This document shows positions 4,672 to 60,278 of a stretch of DNA of 64,000 nucleotides, piece after piece. The number at the start of each line of letters is the position of its first letter. The stretch's first letter is position 1. Source of the stretch: Steroidobacteraceae bacterium (lineage in GTDB: Bacteria > Pseudomonadota > Gammaproteobacteria > Steroidobacterales > Steroidobacteraceae). The DNA is taken from assembly GCA_035995425.1 (NCBI GenBank), contig DASYKM010000173.1, positions 101,875-165,874 on the forward strand. The letters run 5' to 3'. The notes under the pieces were generated by a model. The model ran no database searches. It saw only the letters and a program-made list of their open reading frames with translations, and was not told the origin of the DNA. The position numbers and the translations under genes were made by a program.

Positions 4672-5715
4672 TTACTTCCGATGGGGCCGCAGCGCATCCG
4701 CGAGCAGTGAAGTAGGCAAGGCTGGCGGCGATGCAAATATCTTCGCTTGCCAGTCCGGCACCCACGCATCGAGAAGCAGGAACAACGCGAGGCCTTCCTC
4801 CTGGGACCAGGCCTTTCGATTGTCTCGTATGAAATCGACGGTCGCTGCGTCGCTCGCGGTGGGATCCGCGTGCGCCTTGGCGTACCGGTACGCAGCCCAC
4901 TGGGCCGCGCCCTCCATGCTGAGAAACAGCTCCTCGAATTCCGCGTACATTTGGTCCACACCTTTGAAGTATCGCGCCCGGCGCTGACGGATCATCGACA
5001 GGCCTCGCGCCGTCAATGCATGGCGCTTGCTCAGGTCGGCTTCGGAGGCGGCCTGGAAGAGCACGTCGCGCTCGGCCTCGAAAGCCTTCGTGAAGCCAGG
5101 AACACTTTCGAATCGATGCTGGATGATGTCGTCGTCAAGGTGCAGGTCGGGCAGATTGTTGCGATCGGCCACCTTCTGCATCTGCTCGACAAGCGCGGGC
5201 AGCTGCTGCGTATGGACCATCTCGTGTATCAGCACTCCCAACATGTATCGCACGAGCGTGGGGTCGCGCGCGTACTGGGGATCGAGCAACCACACCTCGG
5301 GCAAGGCCATCACGAAGAACGTCGCCGAGCCCTCGCCATACATCGACGCGTAGGCGATCGGATCGGCGGGAATGTCATCACCGCGCGGCAAACGAATCGT
5401 GCCGCCGTGTGGCTTTGCCCGAACCGGAATGGCGGCTCCGGCGAACGACAGTGAGGTCGCGATCGGCACCGTTTCAACCGGCACGCCGTCGCCAGGCATG
5501 AGATGCCAGACGCACGAGTTATCGAACAAGACCATCCATGGCAGCGGAGCGTTCTCCAGGTGCAACGACTCGCTCATCTCGTGCCAACCGTCGAGCGCCT
5601 TCTGGATCCATTGCGACTCCACTTCGGCGAGAGAGCAGACCGGTGCCGACCGAGCCGCTGGGTGCACGAACAACAGTGCTGCGAAGACGCTGAACAAAGC
5701 CCGAGGGTGTCTCAT
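4672..5715 (-). CDS. secreted HExxH metallopeptidase-like protein
   Basis: Internal ATG at 5715 gives MRHPRALFSVFAALLFVHPAARSAP, a signal peptide. 'LIHEMVHTQQ' is an HExxH motif. The 69-aa upstream extension in the track is Arg/Ala-rich junk. Confidence 0.55.
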   Translation of the reverse strand: MRHPRALFSVFAALLFVHPAARSAPVCSLAEVESQWIQKALDGWHEMSESLHLENAPLPWMVLFDNSCVWHLMPGDGVPVETVPIATSLSFAGAAIPVRAKPHGGTIRLPRGDDIPADPIAYASMYGEGSATFFVMALPEVWLLDPQYARDPTLVRYMLGVLIHEMVHTQQLPALVEQMQKVADRNNLPDLHLDDDIIQHRFESVPGFTKAFEAERDVLFQAASEADLSKRHALTARGLSMIRQRRARYFKGVDQMYAEFEELFLSMEGAAQWAAYRYAKAHADPTASDAATVDFIRDNRKAWSQEEGLALFLLLDAWVPDWQAKIFASPPALPTSLLADALRPHRK

Positions 5716-55279: not shown

Positions 55280-55588
55280 ATGAGGCTGATGAACGACGAG
55301 ACAATCCTGCGGGAAAAGGCCCGCAACGCTATCCAGGCTGGACAACTCCCGGATCGTGAGCCCAACCGCACCTGGGCTGGCAAAGGGGGTGGTGGCACCT
55401 GCTCCGTGTGCACCGATGAGGTACAGCCCCAGGAGATCGAGTTCGAGCTGGAGTTCCAGTCCGGCAAAGGACAGCCTGGTGGGCTGGCGAACTACCGGTT
55501 TCACATGCGATGCTTCGCGGCATGGGAGTTCGAGCGGCAAAGCCGTTCCAGCAACGGGCGGCACGTTGATGGAAGGGAGCCAGCATGA
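55280..55588 (+). CDS. small hypothetical CxxC protein
   Basis: 102 aa. 'GGTCSVCTDEV' and 'FHMRCFAAWEFE'. The 3' end overlaps the sigma-factor start by 20 nt. Confidence 0.4.
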   Translation: MRLMNDETILREKARNAIQAGQLPDREPNRTWAGKGGGGTCSVCTDEVQPQEIEFELEFQSGKGQPGGLANYRFHMRCFAAWEFERQSRSSNGRHVDGREPA

Positions 55589-56192
55589 AAGTGCAGCCGG
55601 AACACTGGGCGCGCTGCTTTATGCAGACAAATCCAGGGTCCGCGCGCCCGAAGAAGAATGGGTTTCTTTGGTCCACGCGATGGCCAGTGGCGATCAGCGT
55701 GCGCTGCATACTCTCTATGAACGGACGCATCGCCTCGTCTTCACCCTGATCATGCGCATCTGCAGAAACCGCGAAGCGGCGGATGAATTGACCGTGGACG
55801 TCTTCCACGGGGTGTGGCGGCGCGCGTCCGCATACGATCCGACGGGTGGTTCGGTGGTGGGATGGATCATGAATCAGGCGCGCTCGCGCGCGCTCGATCG
55901 GTTGCGTTTCGAGGGCCGCAAGAAGCGCGTGAACCCATACACCGCCGAGTCGCCGGCCATGTCTGCCGTTGAGGACTCTGCCGAGCAAATGACCCTGGAT
56001 GAGCGGGGCGCGCTCTTGCGAAAAGCGCTGCTCGTTCTTTCGCCGGAGGAGCGCCGGGCGATCGAGTCGGCCTTTTTTTTGGACCTCACTTACGCCGAAG
56101 TGGCGACGCGGCACGACCAGCCGGTCGGGACCGTCAAGACGCGCATCCGTTCCGGTCTGAACAAGCTGCGGCAGGAGCTGGAAATTGGATAA
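55569..56192 (+). CDS. ECF sigma factor (RpoE/ChrR-partner type)
   Basis: Start taken at MEGSQ. Region 2 'LHTLYERTHRLVFTLIMRICRNREAADELTVDVF', region 4 'ERRAIESAFFLDLTYAEVATRHDQPVGTVKTRIRSGL'. Confidence 0.8.
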   Translation: MEGSQHESAAGTLGALLYADKSRVRAPEEEWVSLVHAMASGDQRALHTLYERTHRLVFTLIMRICRNREAADELTVDVFHGVWRRASAYDPTGGSVVGWIMNQARSRALDRLRFEGRKKRVNPYTAESPAMSAVEDSAEQMTLDERGALLRKALLVLSPEERRAIESAFFLDLTYAEVATRHDQPVGTVKTRIRSGLNKLRQELEIG

Positions 56193-56754
56193 CAAGCTCT
56201 GCGCACAGATCGAGCGCGTCGCGGTCTTCTCGCTGCGTGCGCTTCCCGAACATGAAGTGCCCGCCATCGAAGCGCACATCGCCGAGTGTGAGCAGTGCCG
56301 CAAGGAACTGAACCGGCTGCGTCCGATCGTCGATTTCTTCGTCGACTGGCCTACGGACGTCTTGCGCCCGTCGGAATCGCTGCAGGAGCGCCTGGCGCGG
56401 CGCATCGCCGCCGAGACTGGCGGAGACATCGTGTTGCCGACGACGCGAGCCTGGACCGAACCGGAATGGGAGGAAGTCGCGCCGGGAATTTCCTGCAAGC
56501 TCCTGTCTTCGGACCCGGAACAGAATCGCGTGAGCATGCTGGTGCGGCTCGCGCCCGGAGTCGACTACCCGCCCCACACGCACGCGGGAGTCGAAGAATT
56601 GCACCTGCTCGATGGCGAGCTGTGGATCGATGACCGCAAACTCTATCCCGGAGATTTCAATCGCGCGGAGCCGGGCACCTCCGATCGGCGCGTGTGGAGC
56701 GAGACGGGTTGCACCTGCGTGTTGATCACCTCGCCGCGCGACGTGCTTCGTTGA
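56185..56754 (+). CDS. ChrR-like anti-sigma factor (zf-HC2 plus cupin)
   Basis: TTG start overlaps the sigma stop by 8 nt. 'HIAECEQCRKEL' is zf-HC2. Cupin 'HTHAGVEELHLLDGEL'. Confidence 0.75.
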   Translation: MDNKLCAQIERVAVFSLRALPEHEVPAIEAHIAECEQCRKELNRLRPIVDFFVDWPTDVLRPSESLQERLARRIAAETGGDIVLPTTRAWTEPEWEEVAPGISCKLLSSDPEQNRVSMLVRLAPGVDYPPHTHAGVEELHLLDGELWIDDRKLYPGDFNRAEPGTSDRRVWSETGCTCVLITSPRDVLR

Positions 56755-57850
56755 TTCCCCGCTGAGCAACCGGGAATCCGGGCCGCGGATATTCGAGCTG
56801 CAAGGCGACGAAGCTCGCGGTGGAGCTGCCATACATGCGCGTGATGTCGGCGAGCGTCTGGTCGAGCACCTCGCCGGGCAAAAATCCATCGAGCGTCATG
56901 ACAATGTCACGCGATGACTTCACGTCGGCTTCGGTGCGATCCGGCAACAGCATCAAGCCGCCTTTCGTGCGTACGGCGCCGGCCGTGCTTGCCAGTGTGA
57001 AGGCGCGGTTTCGAAATGTGCGCGAATACGCATCGGCGGCCAGTGCGAGCGAGATCTCGTCTTCGCCCGCGGAGACTTGAAGATCAATCGTCCGCTTTCG
57101 TGACAAGAGGTTCCGGATCGCCAGCGCGTAGGTCGAAGCGCGCATATGGAACTGCTGGCTGTCGTGCTCGCTGCTCCAGTCGCTGACGCCGAGCTCTCTG
57201 GCGACGCGCGCCGCGGAGTCGGTGCCGGCAAACGCTTCGACGAGGGCGAGCGAGAGCGGAATGGCGGCGGTAACGCCGGCACTGGAGATCACCTTGCCGT
57301 CGGCGACATAGCGCGTGTTCTCCAACCACTGCGTATCCGGGAATGCGTGCTCGCGTTTTGATTGCGTTGCCCAATGGCCGGTGGCGCGGTGGCCTTTGAA
57401 CAAGCCTGCCTGGGCGACCACCATCGCTCCGTCGCAGATGCTCACCACGGTGGCACCCTTGGCGGCTTGTGCGCGCAGCCAGTCCAGCACGATCGATTGC
57501 GCGGCACGACTCTCGAACATCATCGCCGGCACGATCACGTAGTCGGCACCGTCCGGAAATCGCTGATCGAAGGTGACGAGCGTGGCCTGCGGCTCGATGC
57601 GCAGCGCCGGACGCATCCGTATCGGGCCGGCGCCAGTGCCCACGGCCAGCACCTCCGCCGCGCCAGACTGCGCAAGGATTCCATACGGAATCACGAAATC
57701 GATGAGCTCCGTGGCGTAGTTCTCACCGAGCACCGCGACGACCGGACGCGTGCGTTCGAACCGCCCCTGGTACGGCGCGATCTGCGCCTGCGCGGGGAGA
57801 AGCGCGCTCACGAGGAGCGCGCTTGCCCAAACAATAGATTGGCGAATCAC
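56726..57850 (-). CDS. exported DJ-1/PfpI-family protein with C-terminal extension
   Basis: GTG start at 57850 gives (M)IRQSIVWASALLVSALLPAQAQ, a signal peptide. 'DYVIVPAM', 'SICDGAMVVAQAGLFKGHRATGHW'. The remainder of the 696-aa track ORF is artefactual. Confidence 0.7.
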   Translation of the reverse strand: MIRQSIVWASALLVSALLPAQAQIAPYQGRFERTRPVVAVLGENYATELIDFVIPYGILAQSGAAEVLAVGTGAGPIRMRPALRIEPQATLVTFDQRFPDGADYVIVPAMMFESRAAQSIVLDWLRAQAAKGATVVSICDGAMVVAQAGLFKGHRATGHWATQSKREHAFPDTQWLENTRYVADGKVISSAGVTAAIPLSLALVEAFAGTDSAARVARELGVSDWSSEHDSQQFHMRASTYALAIRNLLSRKRTIDLQVSAGEDEISLALAADAYSRTFRNRAFTLASTAGAVRTKGGLMLLPDRTEADVKSSRDIVMTLDGFLPGEVLDQTLADITRMYGSSTASFVALQLEYPRPGFPVAQRGINEARRAAR

Positions 57851-58011
57851 GCTTTGGCACTCGTGGTCTTGGCGCACTTGCAGGCCGAGCCGCAGGCGCA
57901 ACCGGGACCACAGCCGCAGGTCGCGGGCGCGGCAGCCTTCTGACAACCGCAGGTGCACGTGGATCCGGCGCAGTTCTGGCAGCCGCAAGGCTTCTTGTTC
58001 GCTTCGTTCAT
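57847..58011 (-). CDS. 54-aa Cys-rich metallothionein-like peptide (absent from the ORF track)
   Basis: Hand translation: MNEANKKPCGCQNCAGSTCTCGCQKAAAPATCGCGPGCACGSACKCAKTTSAKA*. It has 12 Cys in CxC/CxxC clusters. 'agaggaga' lies 5 nt upstream of the ATG. Its TGA overlaps the GTG of the DJ-1/PfpI gene (GTGA). Confidence 0.6.
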   Translation of the reverse strand: MNEANKKPCGCQNCAGSTCTCGCQKAAAPATCGCGPGCACGSACKCAKTTSAKA

Positions 58012-58086
58012 GATGTTCTCCTCTGGGTGGTTGATATCGCCAGTGCAATCTACCGGCGCCCGCCCACAGAGCCTTGAACGAAACGG

Positions 58087-58848
58087 CTATTCGGGCCGCA
58101 CGCTCGCCGGCGTGATGCCGAACATCTTCTTGAACGTGCGCGAGAAGTGCGCCGAGTCCGCAAAGCCGCCGGCGTGAGCGGCTTCCGTGAGCGACTTGCC
58201 ACGCACATACGCCGACAGCGCGGCCTCGAGCCGCAGCCACAGCAGATACGGCCGAAAGCCGACACCGGTCTCGTGCATGAACAGATGCCGAAAGCGATCC
58301 GGCGACAGGTGCACGGCCGCAGCGATGGATTTGAGCGGAATCGAGTCGCTCAATCGCTCGCGTATCAATTCCAGCGCGCGCGCAATGCGCGCGTCGGGCA
58401 ACTTGGCGGATGAAGCCGCGGCGCCAGCGAGCTTTGCGATCGCGGCGCGCGTGAGTGCAACGAGCTCGGCATCGGTCGCGCGTTTTTGGAAAGCGGTGGC
58501 GAACGCCGCCACTTCGGCCTTGAGCGCAGCGGCGGGCAGTGCGCAGATTCCCGCATCGCGATATCGAAGCTGAAGGATCCGACCTTCGCGCGACTCTGGC
58601 TCGACGAACACCTGCGCCATGAATTGCCCGCGCGCATCGAACGCATGCGGCTGCTGGGCGGCAACGATGGCGGCGGTATAGCTTTTCCAACTCTCGGACG
58701 GGCGCTGCAGCTTCACGCGTCCGGGTTGAAAGGGCAGCGTGATCTGTAACGCGTGATGGGAGTGGAGGCCGGCCGGTTCGCCGGCAAGCCCGATCCACAG
58801 GCTGCCGCTGCGCCACATGACGATTCTTCCGGAGGCGCTGGGTTTCAT
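58087..58848 (-). CDS. AraC-family transcriptional regulator
   Basis: Start at MKPSASG overlaps the MocR stop (ATGA). C-terminal 'LSPDRFRHLFMHETGVGFRPYLLWLRLEAA.......GFADSAHFSRTFKKMFGITP'. Confidence 0.75.
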   Translation of the reverse strand: MKPSASGRIVMWRSGSLWIGLAGEPAGLHSHHALQITLPFQPGRVKLQRPSESWKSYTAAIVAAQQPHAFDARGQFMAQVFVEPESREGRILQLRYRDAGICALPAAALKAEVAAFATAFQKRATDAELVALTRAAIAKLAGAAASSAKLPDARIARALELIRERLSDSIPLKSIAAAVHLSPDRFRHLFMHETGVGFRPYLLWLRLEAALSAYVRGKSLTEAAHAGGFADSAHFSRTFKKMFGITPASVRPE

Positions 58849-60278
58849 AGAACCTCGCCCAGTCGCCTGATGCCCTCGCGAATCTCCGCTTCCTTCATGC
58901 GCGAAAAACCGAGCATCCATCCGGCTCTCGCGGGCTTGGTCAGAAAGTAGCGCGAGATGCCATATATCCCGACGCCGCGGGCGGCGGCCTTGTCGACCAC
59001 CATGCTTTCCGCGACGCGCTTGCGCGGCCACAGAACGACGTGGGCGCCGGCGCCTTCACCGGTGATTTCGACCCGGTCGCCGAGATATCGGCCGACGGAG
59101 TCGCGCAGCACGTCGCGACGCGCGGTGTTTCTGCGTCGCACGCGGCGCAAATGCCGCTCATACACGCCGGTGTTGATGAACTCGGCGAGCGCCTCCTGCT
59201 CGAGCGTGGCCGTGTGGCGGTCGCAGAGCCACTTGGCCGATGTGAAGGTGGCAACCAGGCTTTGCGGCACGACCAGGTAGCCGATGCGCAGCGCCGAGAA
59301 GACCGTGCGCGAAAACGTCCCGACGTAGAGGACGCGCCCCTCGGTATCCAGGCCCTGCAGGGATTCGAGCGGCTGCGCGCCGTAGTGAAACTCGCCGTCG
59401 TAGTCGTCCTCGACGATCAATGCATCGTTGTGCCTGGCCCAGTCGAGCAACGCCATGCGCCGCGCCAGCGGCAGGACGACGCCGGTGGGAAACTGGTGTG
59501 ACGGCGTGACGAAGGCAACGCGGGCGTCGGCCGGCAGCCGCGCGGGATCGATGCCGTCGCGGTCGACCGGCACGGGCAGCAGGCGCGCGCCGGCGGCGCG
59601 CAGGACCTCGCGAGTGCCCTGATAGTTAGGGTTCTCGATGGCGACTCGATCGCCGCGGTCGATCAGCACGCGCGCAATCAGGTCGAGCGCCTGCTGCGAG
59701 CCGTTGACGACGATCACTTGCGACGGCTCGCAGACCACGGCACGAGACCGTCGCAGGTGCACGGAGATGGCGTGGCGCAGGGCGAGACTTCCGGCGGCCG
59801 GCCCATAGTCGAGCTCGCGTCCCGGCGTCTTGCGCGCGTGCCGCAGCAGCGTGCGGCGCCACGCTTCGAACGGAAACGTGGCGACGTCGCTGCGTCCGTA
59901 GGCGAAATCGTAACGCAGCGCCGCAGCTTGTTTGCCCGGGATATCGACGATTGTCGCGGCGGCCGCCGCGGCGGACCCGAAGCGCGACAACTTCACTTTG
60001 CGTGGACTGGCGCGGCCGCCCGGTTGGCGCGCGCGCAGCGCTTCGGCCACATAGGTTCCCGAACCGGCGCGACCCGCCACGAAACCTTCGGCGAGCAGGT
60101 GTTCGTAGGCCAGCACCACTGCGGTTCGCGAAACCTGCAGCTGTTCCGCCAGCTCGCGCGTCGACGGTAGACGTTCACGCGCGCGCAGCGTGCCGCGCAG
60201 GATTGCCTGGCGGAACCAGTGGTAGATCTGCCGCGACAGCGGCACGCCGTTCTTTGAAAGTGGTATGGCGGATGGCAC
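58845..60278 (-). CDS. MocR/PdxR-type GntR-family regulator with aminotransferase-like domain
   Basis: N-terminal GntR wHTH 'LPSTRELAEQLQVSRTAVVLAYEHLLAEGF'. Fold-type-I PLP domain 'YGPAAG...LRHAISVHL', 'TFSRTVFSALRIGYLVVP'. Confidence 0.85.
   Translation of the reverse strand: MPSAIPLSKNGVPLSRQIYHWFRQAILRGTLRARERLPSTRELAEQLQVSRTAVVLAYEHLLAEGFVAGRAGSGTYVAEALRARQPGGRASPRKVKLSRFGSAAAAAATIVDIPGKQAAALRYDFAYGRSDVATFPFEAWRRTLLRHARKTPGRELDYGPAAGSLALRHAISVHLRRSRAVVCEPSQVIVVNGSQQALDLIARVLIDRGDRVAIENPNYQGTREVLRAAGARLLPVPVDRDGIDPARLPADARVAFVTPSHQFPTGVVLPLARRMALLDWARHNDALIVEDDYDGEFHYGAQPLESLQGLDTEGRVLYVGTFSRTVFSALRIGYLVVPQSLVATFTSAKWLCDRHTATLEQEALAEFINTGVYERHLRRVRRRNTARRDVLRDSVGRYLGDRVEITGEGAGAHVVLWPRKRVAESMVVDKAAARGVGIYGISRYFLTKPARAGWMLGFSRMKEAEIREGIRRLGEVL

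Follow-up and report, generated by a model that had tools for sequence, protein, structure and literature searches.

On the minus strand of a 64,000-nt stretch of contig DASYKM010000173.1 from a Steroidobacteraceae bacterium (hereafter the window), an open reading frame (ORF) for a Cys-rich peptide of 54 amino acids lies between the gene of an AraC-family regulator and that of a DJ-1/PfpI-family protein. A preliminary description of this DNA had proposed that the ORF is a real gene for a metallothionein-like peptide, translationally coupled to an exported DJ-1/PfpI protein. We analysed the peptide, its relatives and their genomic surroundings computationally and found that it belongs to a widespread family whose constant partners are the AraC regulator and a conserved box in front of the peptide gene. 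The features of the window on which the analysis builds are the following, from upstream to downstream.

58087–58848, minus strand: AraC-family regulator of 253 amino acids (ATG at 58848), with a C-terminal HTH_18/HTH_AraC region and an N-terminal domain of unknown family
58073–58089, minus strand: conserved box TAGCCGTTTCGTTCAAG, presumed operator of the adjacent AraC regulator, overlapping the -35 region; its first three bases are the TAG stop codon of the regulator gene (58089–58087)
58047–58052, minus strand: -10-like hexamer TAGATT of a putative promoter, 20 nt 3′ of the box
58017–58024, minus strand: Shine-Dalgarno-like sequence AGAGGAGA, 5 nt 5′ of the peptide ATG
57847–58011, minus strand: coding sequence of the metallothionein-like peptide (ATG 58011–58009, TGA 57849–57847), based on the minus-strand reading, the ORF listing and family conservation
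56726–57850, minus strand: DJ-1/PfpI-family protein of 374 amino acids, whose GTG start overlaps the peptide TGA (PF01965, 75.1 bits, cut-off 26.6)
57785–57850, minus strand: predicted Sec signal peptide of the DJ-1/PfpI protein, MIRQSIVWASALLVSALLPAQA, ending before QIAPY and assigned by eye

The translation of the peptide ORF, MNEANKKPCGCQNCAGSTCTCGCQKAAAPATCGCGPGCACGSACKCAKTTSAKA, contains 12 Cys but lacks His, Arg and aromatic residues, and it consists of an N-terminal block (CGCQNCAGSTCTCGCQ), the linker KAAAPAT and a C-terminal block (CGCGPGCACGSACKC). Re-reading of the minus strand together with the ORF listing reproduced everything that the preliminary description had stated about the sequence itself, including the strong ribosome-binding site (RBS) ahead of the ATG (AGAGGAGA read from 58024 to 58017) and the overlap between the peptide stop and the DJ-1/PfpI start (GTGA at 57850–57847). 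The Cys fraction of 22% is the highest among the 543 ORFs of at least 40 amino acids in the window (runner-up 14%), and the complete lack of Arg (0%) contrasts with the Arg-rich off-frame and shadow ORFs of this DNA (63% GC). The GC content at third codon positions is 0.78 for the peptide ORF and 0.78 and 0.77 for the flanking genes. When the N-terminal block was compared with that of the nearest relative (locus L001), 6 of 11 codon differences proved synonymous, all six at conserved Cys or Gly positions. Composition and conservation in more than 200 other sequences rule out a chance ORF, and we regard it as virtually certain that this is a genuine gene, although the public annotation of the window's own contig leaves it uncalled. 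Frame, ATG, RBS and Cys spacing are kept in every related locus examined, which is the opposite of the outcome named beforehand as speaking against the gene, namely a frame that is lost where the neighbours are kept.

The downstream protein is a member of the DJ-1/PfpI superfamily, with a nucleophile-elbow Cys139 (SICDG) that is invariant in 33 orthologues. It has an uncharacterised C-terminal extension of ~170 amino acids and reaches the cut-off of no named NCBIfam equivalog. The orthologues possess equivalent hydrophobic N-termini ending in AxA. A stop/start overlap recurs in six of the seven loci having the peptide and DJ-1 pair (GTGA in the window, L001, L002, L118 and L181; ATGA in L004), and only L049 has a separate start; this recurrence argues for the suggested coupling with the exported DJ-1/PfpI protein. 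Such coupling is a lineage-specific addition and not a family-wide trait.

Two public gene calls were affected at these loci. The DJ-1 call of the window's contig (P0002, 361 amino acids) starts 13 codons late and so lacks the signal peptide, and that of L001 (6001–7208) starts too early and extends 73 nt into the peptide ORF. Because the small peptide ORF was uncalled, the DJ-1 start was mis-set in both contigs. The case shows that genes of fewer than 60 codons escape annotation and distort neighbouring gene calls.

A family of small cysteine-rich peptides

The preliminary description had called for a search for similar Cys-rich peptides, and a combination of HMMER, profile and DNA-pattern searches yielded at least 220 unique homologues of 41–86 amino acids (median 54 amino acids, median 12 Cys, 22% Cys). 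A word-indexed search with the single peptide returned one relative only, P0001 (45 amino acids), whose contig (L001) has the same order of AraC regulator, peptide and DJ-1 and the same GTGA overlap. In the HMMER scan, which covered 1.84 billion representative proteins, 18 peptides of 45–70 amino acids had the same Cys register, and the profile search produced 98 clusters at 90% identity. Exact matching of a degenerate DNA pattern for the N-terminal block alone hit at least 120 metagenome contigs; among the N-block matches listed, each has a small ORF that is intact, begins with ATG and includes the conserved C-terminal block, which was absent from the query pattern. An RBS of the GGAG/AGGA type is located 4–18 nt ahead of the ATG in 111 of 127 family loci.

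The family consensus can be written as M-N-x(5-6)-CxCxxCxGxxCxCGCQ - x(6-12) - CxCGPxCxCGxxCxC, in which a linker of ~8 residues separates two six-Cys blocks. Subtypes of the C-terminal block exist, for example CxCGCQQGxPCxC in a Lysobacter-like group. Each Cys column in an alignment of 94 sequences is either invariant or shows conservation of at least 90%. Gly16, Gly22, Gln24, Gly35, Pro36 and Gly41 are also kept at the protein level while their codons drift synonymously, and conservation is uniform along the whole peptide, without a split into leader and core. Across 220 family sequences (~5 kDa), Phe, Tyr and Trp together account for 0.3% of residues and His for 0.5%, and neither a hydrophobic run of eight or more residues nor a signal peptide is found.

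The family occurs in metagenomes from soil and rhizosphere, in metagenome-assembled genomes assigned to Burkholderiales (Caldimonas, Inhella) or to unclassified Gammaproteobacteria, and in Allosphingosinicella. A partial census of isolate genomes added Caballeronia arationis (AWB81_05323), Noviluteimonas (Lysobacter) dokdonensis and Cupriavidus sp. P-10. The Cupriavidus homologue has 63 amino acids and is encoded at 232081–232272 of NZ_AP025172.1. A tblastn search of the peptide against plasmids gave no match, with the low-complexity filter as the probable cause; using the regulator as query, the plasmid search recovered loci of Cupriavidus, Gemmatirosa, Polaromonas and Spirosoma.

Wherever a source names a family member, the name is 'hypothetical protein'. 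The window peptide matched nothing in Pfam (E ≤ 1) or NCBIfam, and 24 family members matched nothing in Pfam at E ≤ 10 save for one weak hit to PF12749 (E = 0.33). A profile search of the PDB returned only chance fragments of CCCH zinc fingers (E ≥ 0.07). The family was also not described in the literature searched on AraC-linked bacterial metallothioneins, on DUF2938 and on new bacterial metallothionein families. The family is widespread, mainly in soil Proteobacteria, and was previously unannotated.

One 5.7-kb contig (L124, 2303–5667) contains two regulator and peptide pairs, with peptides beginning MSISATSCSCPSC and MSTTSASCSCSSC, which points to a local duplication of the whole module.

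Regulator, conserved box and downstream genes

We oriented 134 loci on the peptide gene and clustered the neighbouring ORFs de novo (133 loci). Most prominent among the neighbours is a regulator of the AraC family (~255-270 amino acids), which adjoins the peptide gene upstream in 64 of the 93 loci whose upstream sequence exceeds 1 kb (45 co-directional, 18 divergent). DJ-1, in contrast, was found in only ~8 of the 134 loci. The C-terminal half of the window's regulator matches PF12833 (71.8 bits, cut-off 33.6) and PF00165 (49.5 bits, cut-off 26.6), and a PDB profile search retrieved the DNA-binding domains of AraC, MarA and Rob; this double helix-turn-helix places the protein in the AraC/XylS family. 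The N-terminal domain conserves W12, G15, H29, H31, Q35, W54, H68, F81, P84 and G89, and its H-x-H-x3-Q...H arrangement may recall the metal site of cupins, an analogy suggested by the residue pattern.

Comparison of the 120 nt upstream of the peptide genes revealed the box, with the consensus (A/T)(T/C)AGCC(G)nT(T)C(G)TTCAA(G), ~60-80 nt ahead of the ATG. The box was found in 93 of the 124 loci, and 24 loci carry two copies as direct repeats at a spacing of 21 bp; the window holds a single copy. Over all loci we counted 160 boxes compared to ~22 expected by chance, of which 122 precede the peptide gene and 7 precede YtkA-like genes. The box tracks the regulator, being found in 63 of 64 loci with the regulator compared to 8 of 28 without it (Fisher p = 7 × 10−13). 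From this association we infer that the regulator binds the box.

The box is followed ~20 nt on by a -10-like hexamer, a short leader and the strong RBS. TAGATT, TACATT, AGAATG or ACAATG occupies the same offset in relatives, and a -10-like hexamer lies 20 nt past the box in 31 loci. No sigma-70 consensus promoter was found at the peptide gene, as would be expected of an activator-dependent promoter. A mar-box-like site over the -35 region is the layout of promoters that depend on the activators MarA, SoxS or Rob. The box resembles the marbox of these proteins in being asymmetric and ~17 bp long, with half-elements (AGCC...TTCAA) about one helical turn apart, placed at or over a -35 region that lacks a consensus. 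Its sequence differs, however, and the regulator described here has in addition to what is found in MarA and SoxS a ligand domain of ~150 amino acids with an unknown fold and conserved His. We consider it likely, with good confidence, that the peptide gene is regulated through this box.

The regulator and the box were also observed in other arrangements. On plasmid 2 of Gemmatirosa kalamazoonensis (L219, 4001–5210), an AraC orthologue (38% identity) is followed by a box (4775), a divergent Cys-rich peptide (MTSSTTSCACTSCHATTCACG...CPPNCGCAV, ending at 5055) and tandem boxes (5101, 5122) ahead of the next gene, an arrangement suggesting that the module reaches Gemmatimonadota and controls more than one promoter. 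On pSLIN02 of Spirosoma linguale (L220, 3860–8642), regulator and box occur without the peptide, and the box, which contains the TAG stop codon of the regulator, precedes a 'fatty acid hydroxylase' (membrane hydroxylase) gene. The peptide is likewise missing from pPNAP03 of Polaromonas naphthalenivorans CJ2 (L218, 3908–6910), where the regulator is present and the box precedes an operon for DUF3703 and cytochrome c peroxidase. In a subtype with peptides starting MTTQSNVC (L108, L110, L130, L143, L144, L153-L155 and others), GTTGAC-ATGAC-GTCAAC, an inverted repeat without mismatch, is found ~25-45 nt ahead of the ATG, after the -10 region and before the RBS, and other subtypes have different short palindromes in the same place. 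This repeat could be a second operator or a hairpin of the 5′ untranslated region.

The genes downstream of the peptide vary between loci, and the predicted exported DJ-1/PfpI protein of the window is one of several kinds. YtkA-domain lipoproteins with a DGGMPxHGHGLP motif were found in 16 loci, di-haem peroxidases of the MauG/CCP type in 12 loci, and small membrane proteins of two families in 12 and 10 loci, respectively; DUF3703 proteins and membrane-anchored alpha/beta-hydrolases also occur. YtkA/CtaK is a copper chaperone for CuA assembly, and in Bacillus the copper-handling proteins CtaK and YcnJ, which serve CuA assembly, have this YtkA domain (PMC13344008). CusF is encoded nearby in L213-215, and in Spirosoma a copper P-type ATPase gene lies 2.4 kb from the AraC/box module. 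The order on pMTS1 of Cupriavidus sp. P-10 is AraC, peptide, a His-rich secreted protein, outer-membrane factor, adaptor and a resistance-nodulation-division (RND) pump of the CusA/CzcA family (TIGR00914, 759 bits, cut-off 701).

Three further details of this Cupriavidus locus (L208, 6168–8416) concern the encoded proteins. A GAHGP(N/G)GEHLDAP motif is common to a 190-amino-acid protein and the N-terminus of the RND adaptor. The secreted protein of 117 amino acids, whose gene lies between those of the peptide and the outer-membrane factor, has many His residues (HIPHHHDDD), and the motif and His-rich segments are likely to bind metal in the periplasm. The RND pump has AIGxxxDDAxxxVEN in transmembrane segment 4 (TM4).

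Possible metal binding and competing explanations

The composition of the family is that of metallothioneins, as the preliminary description had supposed. Metallothioneins are smaller than about 10 kDa, contain about 15-30% Cys in CxC and CxxC arrays, have few aromatic residues and no stable fold in the apo form; with 54 amino acids in the window and as the family median, 22% Cys in CxC and CxxC motifs, 0.3% aromatic residues, few His and no signal peptide, the peptides agree with each of these properties. An AlphaFold2 model based on the 94-sequence alignment has a pLDDT score (predicted local distance difference test) of 52 and contains a single 4-residue helix as its sole secondary structure. 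This near-absence of a predicted fold fits an apo-metallothionein that is folded by bound metal and counts against a zinc ribbon or an iron-sulfur (Fe-S) module.

The peptides are similar in kind to SmtA/BmtA (PF02069, including Pseudomonas PmtA/PsdMT), which are likewise small cytoplasmic Cys-rich proteins of ~55 amino acids with an adjacent dedicated regulator and a presumed role in metal buffering. SmtA has His ligands and aromatic residues, adopts a zinc-finger-like fold and is controlled by a repressor of the ArsR/SmtB type. The present family, in contrast, shares no sequence similarity with SmtA/BmtA, is almost devoid of His and aromatic residues and has an AraC-type regulator next to it. 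Because the Pfam, NCBIfam and PDB searches were negative, the peptide stands outside the SmtA/BmtA family, which upholds the earlier distinction from these proteins. MymT comes from another phylum, has another Cys/His pattern and is not known to be linked to an AraC regulator. What it has in common with the present family is that it is a Cys-rich bacterial peptide of ~5 kDa, and it is inducible and associated with copper detoxification (PMC7387436). As of 2020, SmtA (zinc) and MymT (copper) were the only bacterial metallothioneins whose biological function had been studied (PMC7387436).

The preliminary description had likened the peptide to fungal Cu-thioneins of the Neurospora type more than to bacterial metallothioneins, and this holds at the level of a local motif only. 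Like the family-8 protein CuMT of Neurospora crassa (MGDCGCSGASSCNCGSGCSCSNCGSK), the peptides have CxC pairs, short spacers rich in Gly and Ser and no His or aromatic residues; unlike it, they are twice as long and possess a distinct and more conserved N-terminal block, CxCxxCxGxxCxCGCQ. The family-8 pattern CxCx5CxCx3CxCx2C is not reproduced in full, and hhalign aligned 10 columns only (CxCGxxCxC, probability 57%). We read the likeness as convergence on a motif and not as homology. New here are the sequence family, the presumed and unusual AraC-type control and a putative modular regulon.

We favour, with moderate confidence, the explanation that the peptide is a metal-binding protein of the metallothionein type, for which Cu(I) is perhaps the leading candidate metal, with Zn or Cd also possible. 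A number of observations weigh against it. Searches of Pfam, NCBIfam and the PDB gave no similarity to curated metallothionein families. The regulator's N-terminal domain matched nothing in Pfam or the PDB, its single-sequence AlphaFold2 model is unreliable (pLDDT 45, N-terminal domain ~32), no known metalloregulator family adjoins the peptide gene and, to our knowledge, metal sensors of the AraC type are unusual. Metal-related neighbours are a heterogeneous minority, and genes for pumps of the heavy-metal-efflux (HME) RND type, which we sought in the other loci, were found at one locus only. Redox- and sulfur-related neighbours recur (di-haem peroxidase, DJ-1, glyoxalase and YeeE, rhodanese and sulfite-oxidase-like genes) and fit a role in thiol redox chemistry equally well. 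Our search for RNA sequencing runs containing the locus found none, only DNA runs of soil metagenomes.

One locus and one subgroup of loci add to these objections. In L216 (188–8312), the order peptide, AraC, DUF3703 and alpha/beta-hydrolase is accompanied by divergent genes for two YeeE/YedE (Sulf_transp) proteins, a rhodanese and a sulfite-oxidase-like molybdoenzyme, a sulfur-handling context that is at odds with a simple metal story. A subgroup (L082, L083, L087, L102, L149 and others) has neither the regulator nor the box and shows the peptide with DUF2938, a LytS-type kinase and a LytTR regulator. The DUF2938 subgroup has a conserved inverted repeat, CATCGAAGAC-N5-GTCGTCGATG, just ahead of the RBS, and downstream of the peptide gene that of a DUF2938 membrane protein together with the two-component system; with this arrangement, the peptide may be under another control circuit that is independent of the first.

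The recurrence of redox and sulfur genes would be accounted for if the peptide were a sacrificial thiol buffer or sensor against oxidants, electrophiles or reactive sulfur (HOCl, H2O2, quinones, glyoxals, polysulfides), with the AraC regulator sensing the stress and DJ-1 and the peroxidases detoxifying its agents. RclR, an AraC-type protein, senses reactive chlorine. The window's regulator matches RclR weakly (E = 9 × 10−5, far below the cut-off), and genes for an extracytoplasmic function (ECF) sigma factor and a ChrR-like anti-sigma factor adjoin the locus in the window, both of which agree with a stress response of this kind. However, the strict Cys spacing and the conserved Gly, Pro and Gln positions indicate a defined cluster geometry that goes beyond a mere number of thiols, the conserved residues of the regulator's N-terminal domain are His and Gln and not Cys, and copper-handling neighbours and the HME-RND operon occur as well. 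We consider such a role unlikely. Because known metallothioneins scavenge oxidants too, this explanation overlaps with that of a metallothionein.

Improbable, in our view, is a role as a small protein with structural Zn or an Fe-S centre that serves as a co-regulator or anti-activator of AraC, or as an assembly factor for the exported and membrane cargo, without buffering metal in bulk. The regulator as the sole near-universal partner and a cargo that consists mostly of envelope proteins would suit such a role. Zinc ribbons and ferredoxin-like motifs are usually modelled with confidence, whereas AlphaFold2 gave no fold for the peptide despite a deep alignment, and a CxC-rich pattern with 22% Cys is unlike the signatures of Fe-S proteins or Cys4 zinc fingers. 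Among the targets of the box, moreover, the peptide gene comes first and is the strongest, as would be expected of an effector more than of a regulator.

A small Cys-rich peptide beside a gene of the peptidase- or amidase-like DJ-1/PfpI family could also be the precursor of a ribosomally synthesized and post-translationally modified peptide (RiPP), with Cys cross-linked or modified and DJ-1/PfpI as the peptidase or modifying enzyme, as the preliminary description had considered. We rejected this very improbable alternative on gene context: no gene for a radical-SAM protein, YcaO, a lanthionine synthetase or a transporter recurs among the clustered neighbours of the 133 loci, many loci hold regulator and peptide only, and DJ-1, where present, is predicted to be exported whereas the peptide has no signal peptide. 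The uniform conservation of the peptide also does not fit a leader and core. An upstream ORF whose translation, perhaps sensitive to Cys-tRNA, controls DJ-1 while the peptide itself is functionless is hardly credible and was likewise rejected on gene context, for although the stop/start overlap would make DJ-1 translation depend on that of the ORF, most loci have no co-oriented gene or a different one downstream, the non-Cys residues are maintained while the codons drift, and no attenuator or terminator structure was found.

For a metallothionein-type peptide, the parts of the locus could work together as follows. The His-x-His-x3-Gln...His residues of the AraC N-terminal domain could bind the inducing metal or signal, and the DNA-binding domain would recognise the box over the -35 region and activate the promoter, much as activators of the MarA/SoxS type do. 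The cytoplasmic peptide, unfolded on its own, would wrap its thiolates around soft metal ions and thereby buffer or sequester them. In this lineage, a ribosome that ends at the peptide TGA would reinitiate at the overlapping GTG, and we propose that synthesis of the Sec-exported DJ-1/PfpI protein would thereby keep pace with that of the peptide, so that a single signal would have an output in the cytoplasm and another in the periplasm.

We tentatively extend this to a model that we regard as possible: the AraC regulator would represent a novel type of metal (copper?) sensor whose primary output is a third, sequence-unrelated class of bacterial metallothioneins, widespread among soil Proteobacteria and with divergent versions in Gemmatimonadota, and the same box would recruit envelope proteins (exported DJ-1, YtkA/CtaK-like, MauG-like, DUF3703, DUF2938 and HME-RND) as a hitherto unrecognised metal-stress regulon. 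The family is abundant in soil and rhizosphere metagenomes and present in culturable isolates, gene callers and annotation libraries overlook it or give it no name, and a dedicated regulator and a presumed operator that is readily recognised accompany it. Should the peptides prove to bind metal, metal buffering in soil Proteobacteria would have a major component that has gone unrecognised, and biosensing or bioremediation could draw on a 12-Cys scaffold of compact size and on a metal switch of the AraC type.

Other genes around the window locus

Four further genes flank the conserved module, one upstream of the AraC gene and three beyond the DJ-1/PfpI gene.

58845–60278, minus strand: MocR-like GntR/aminotransferase regulator gene, outside the conserved module; its TGA overlaps the ATG of the AraC gene (ATGA, 58848–58845)
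55280–55588, plus strand: ORF of 102 amino acids with CxxC and HxxC motifs and without a Pfam match, preceding the sigma factor gene
55280–56754 region, plus strand: ECF sigma factor (Sigma70_r2/r4) with a likely start near 55569, converging on the DJ-1 gene
56185–56754, plus strand: ChrR-like anti-sigma factor (zf-HC2 and Cupin_7), whose 3′ end overlaps that of the DJ-1 gene by ~29 nt

The pairing of the MocR-like gene with the AraC gene was not seen in the other loci. In the window, the two genes are probably co-transcribed and translationally coupled.

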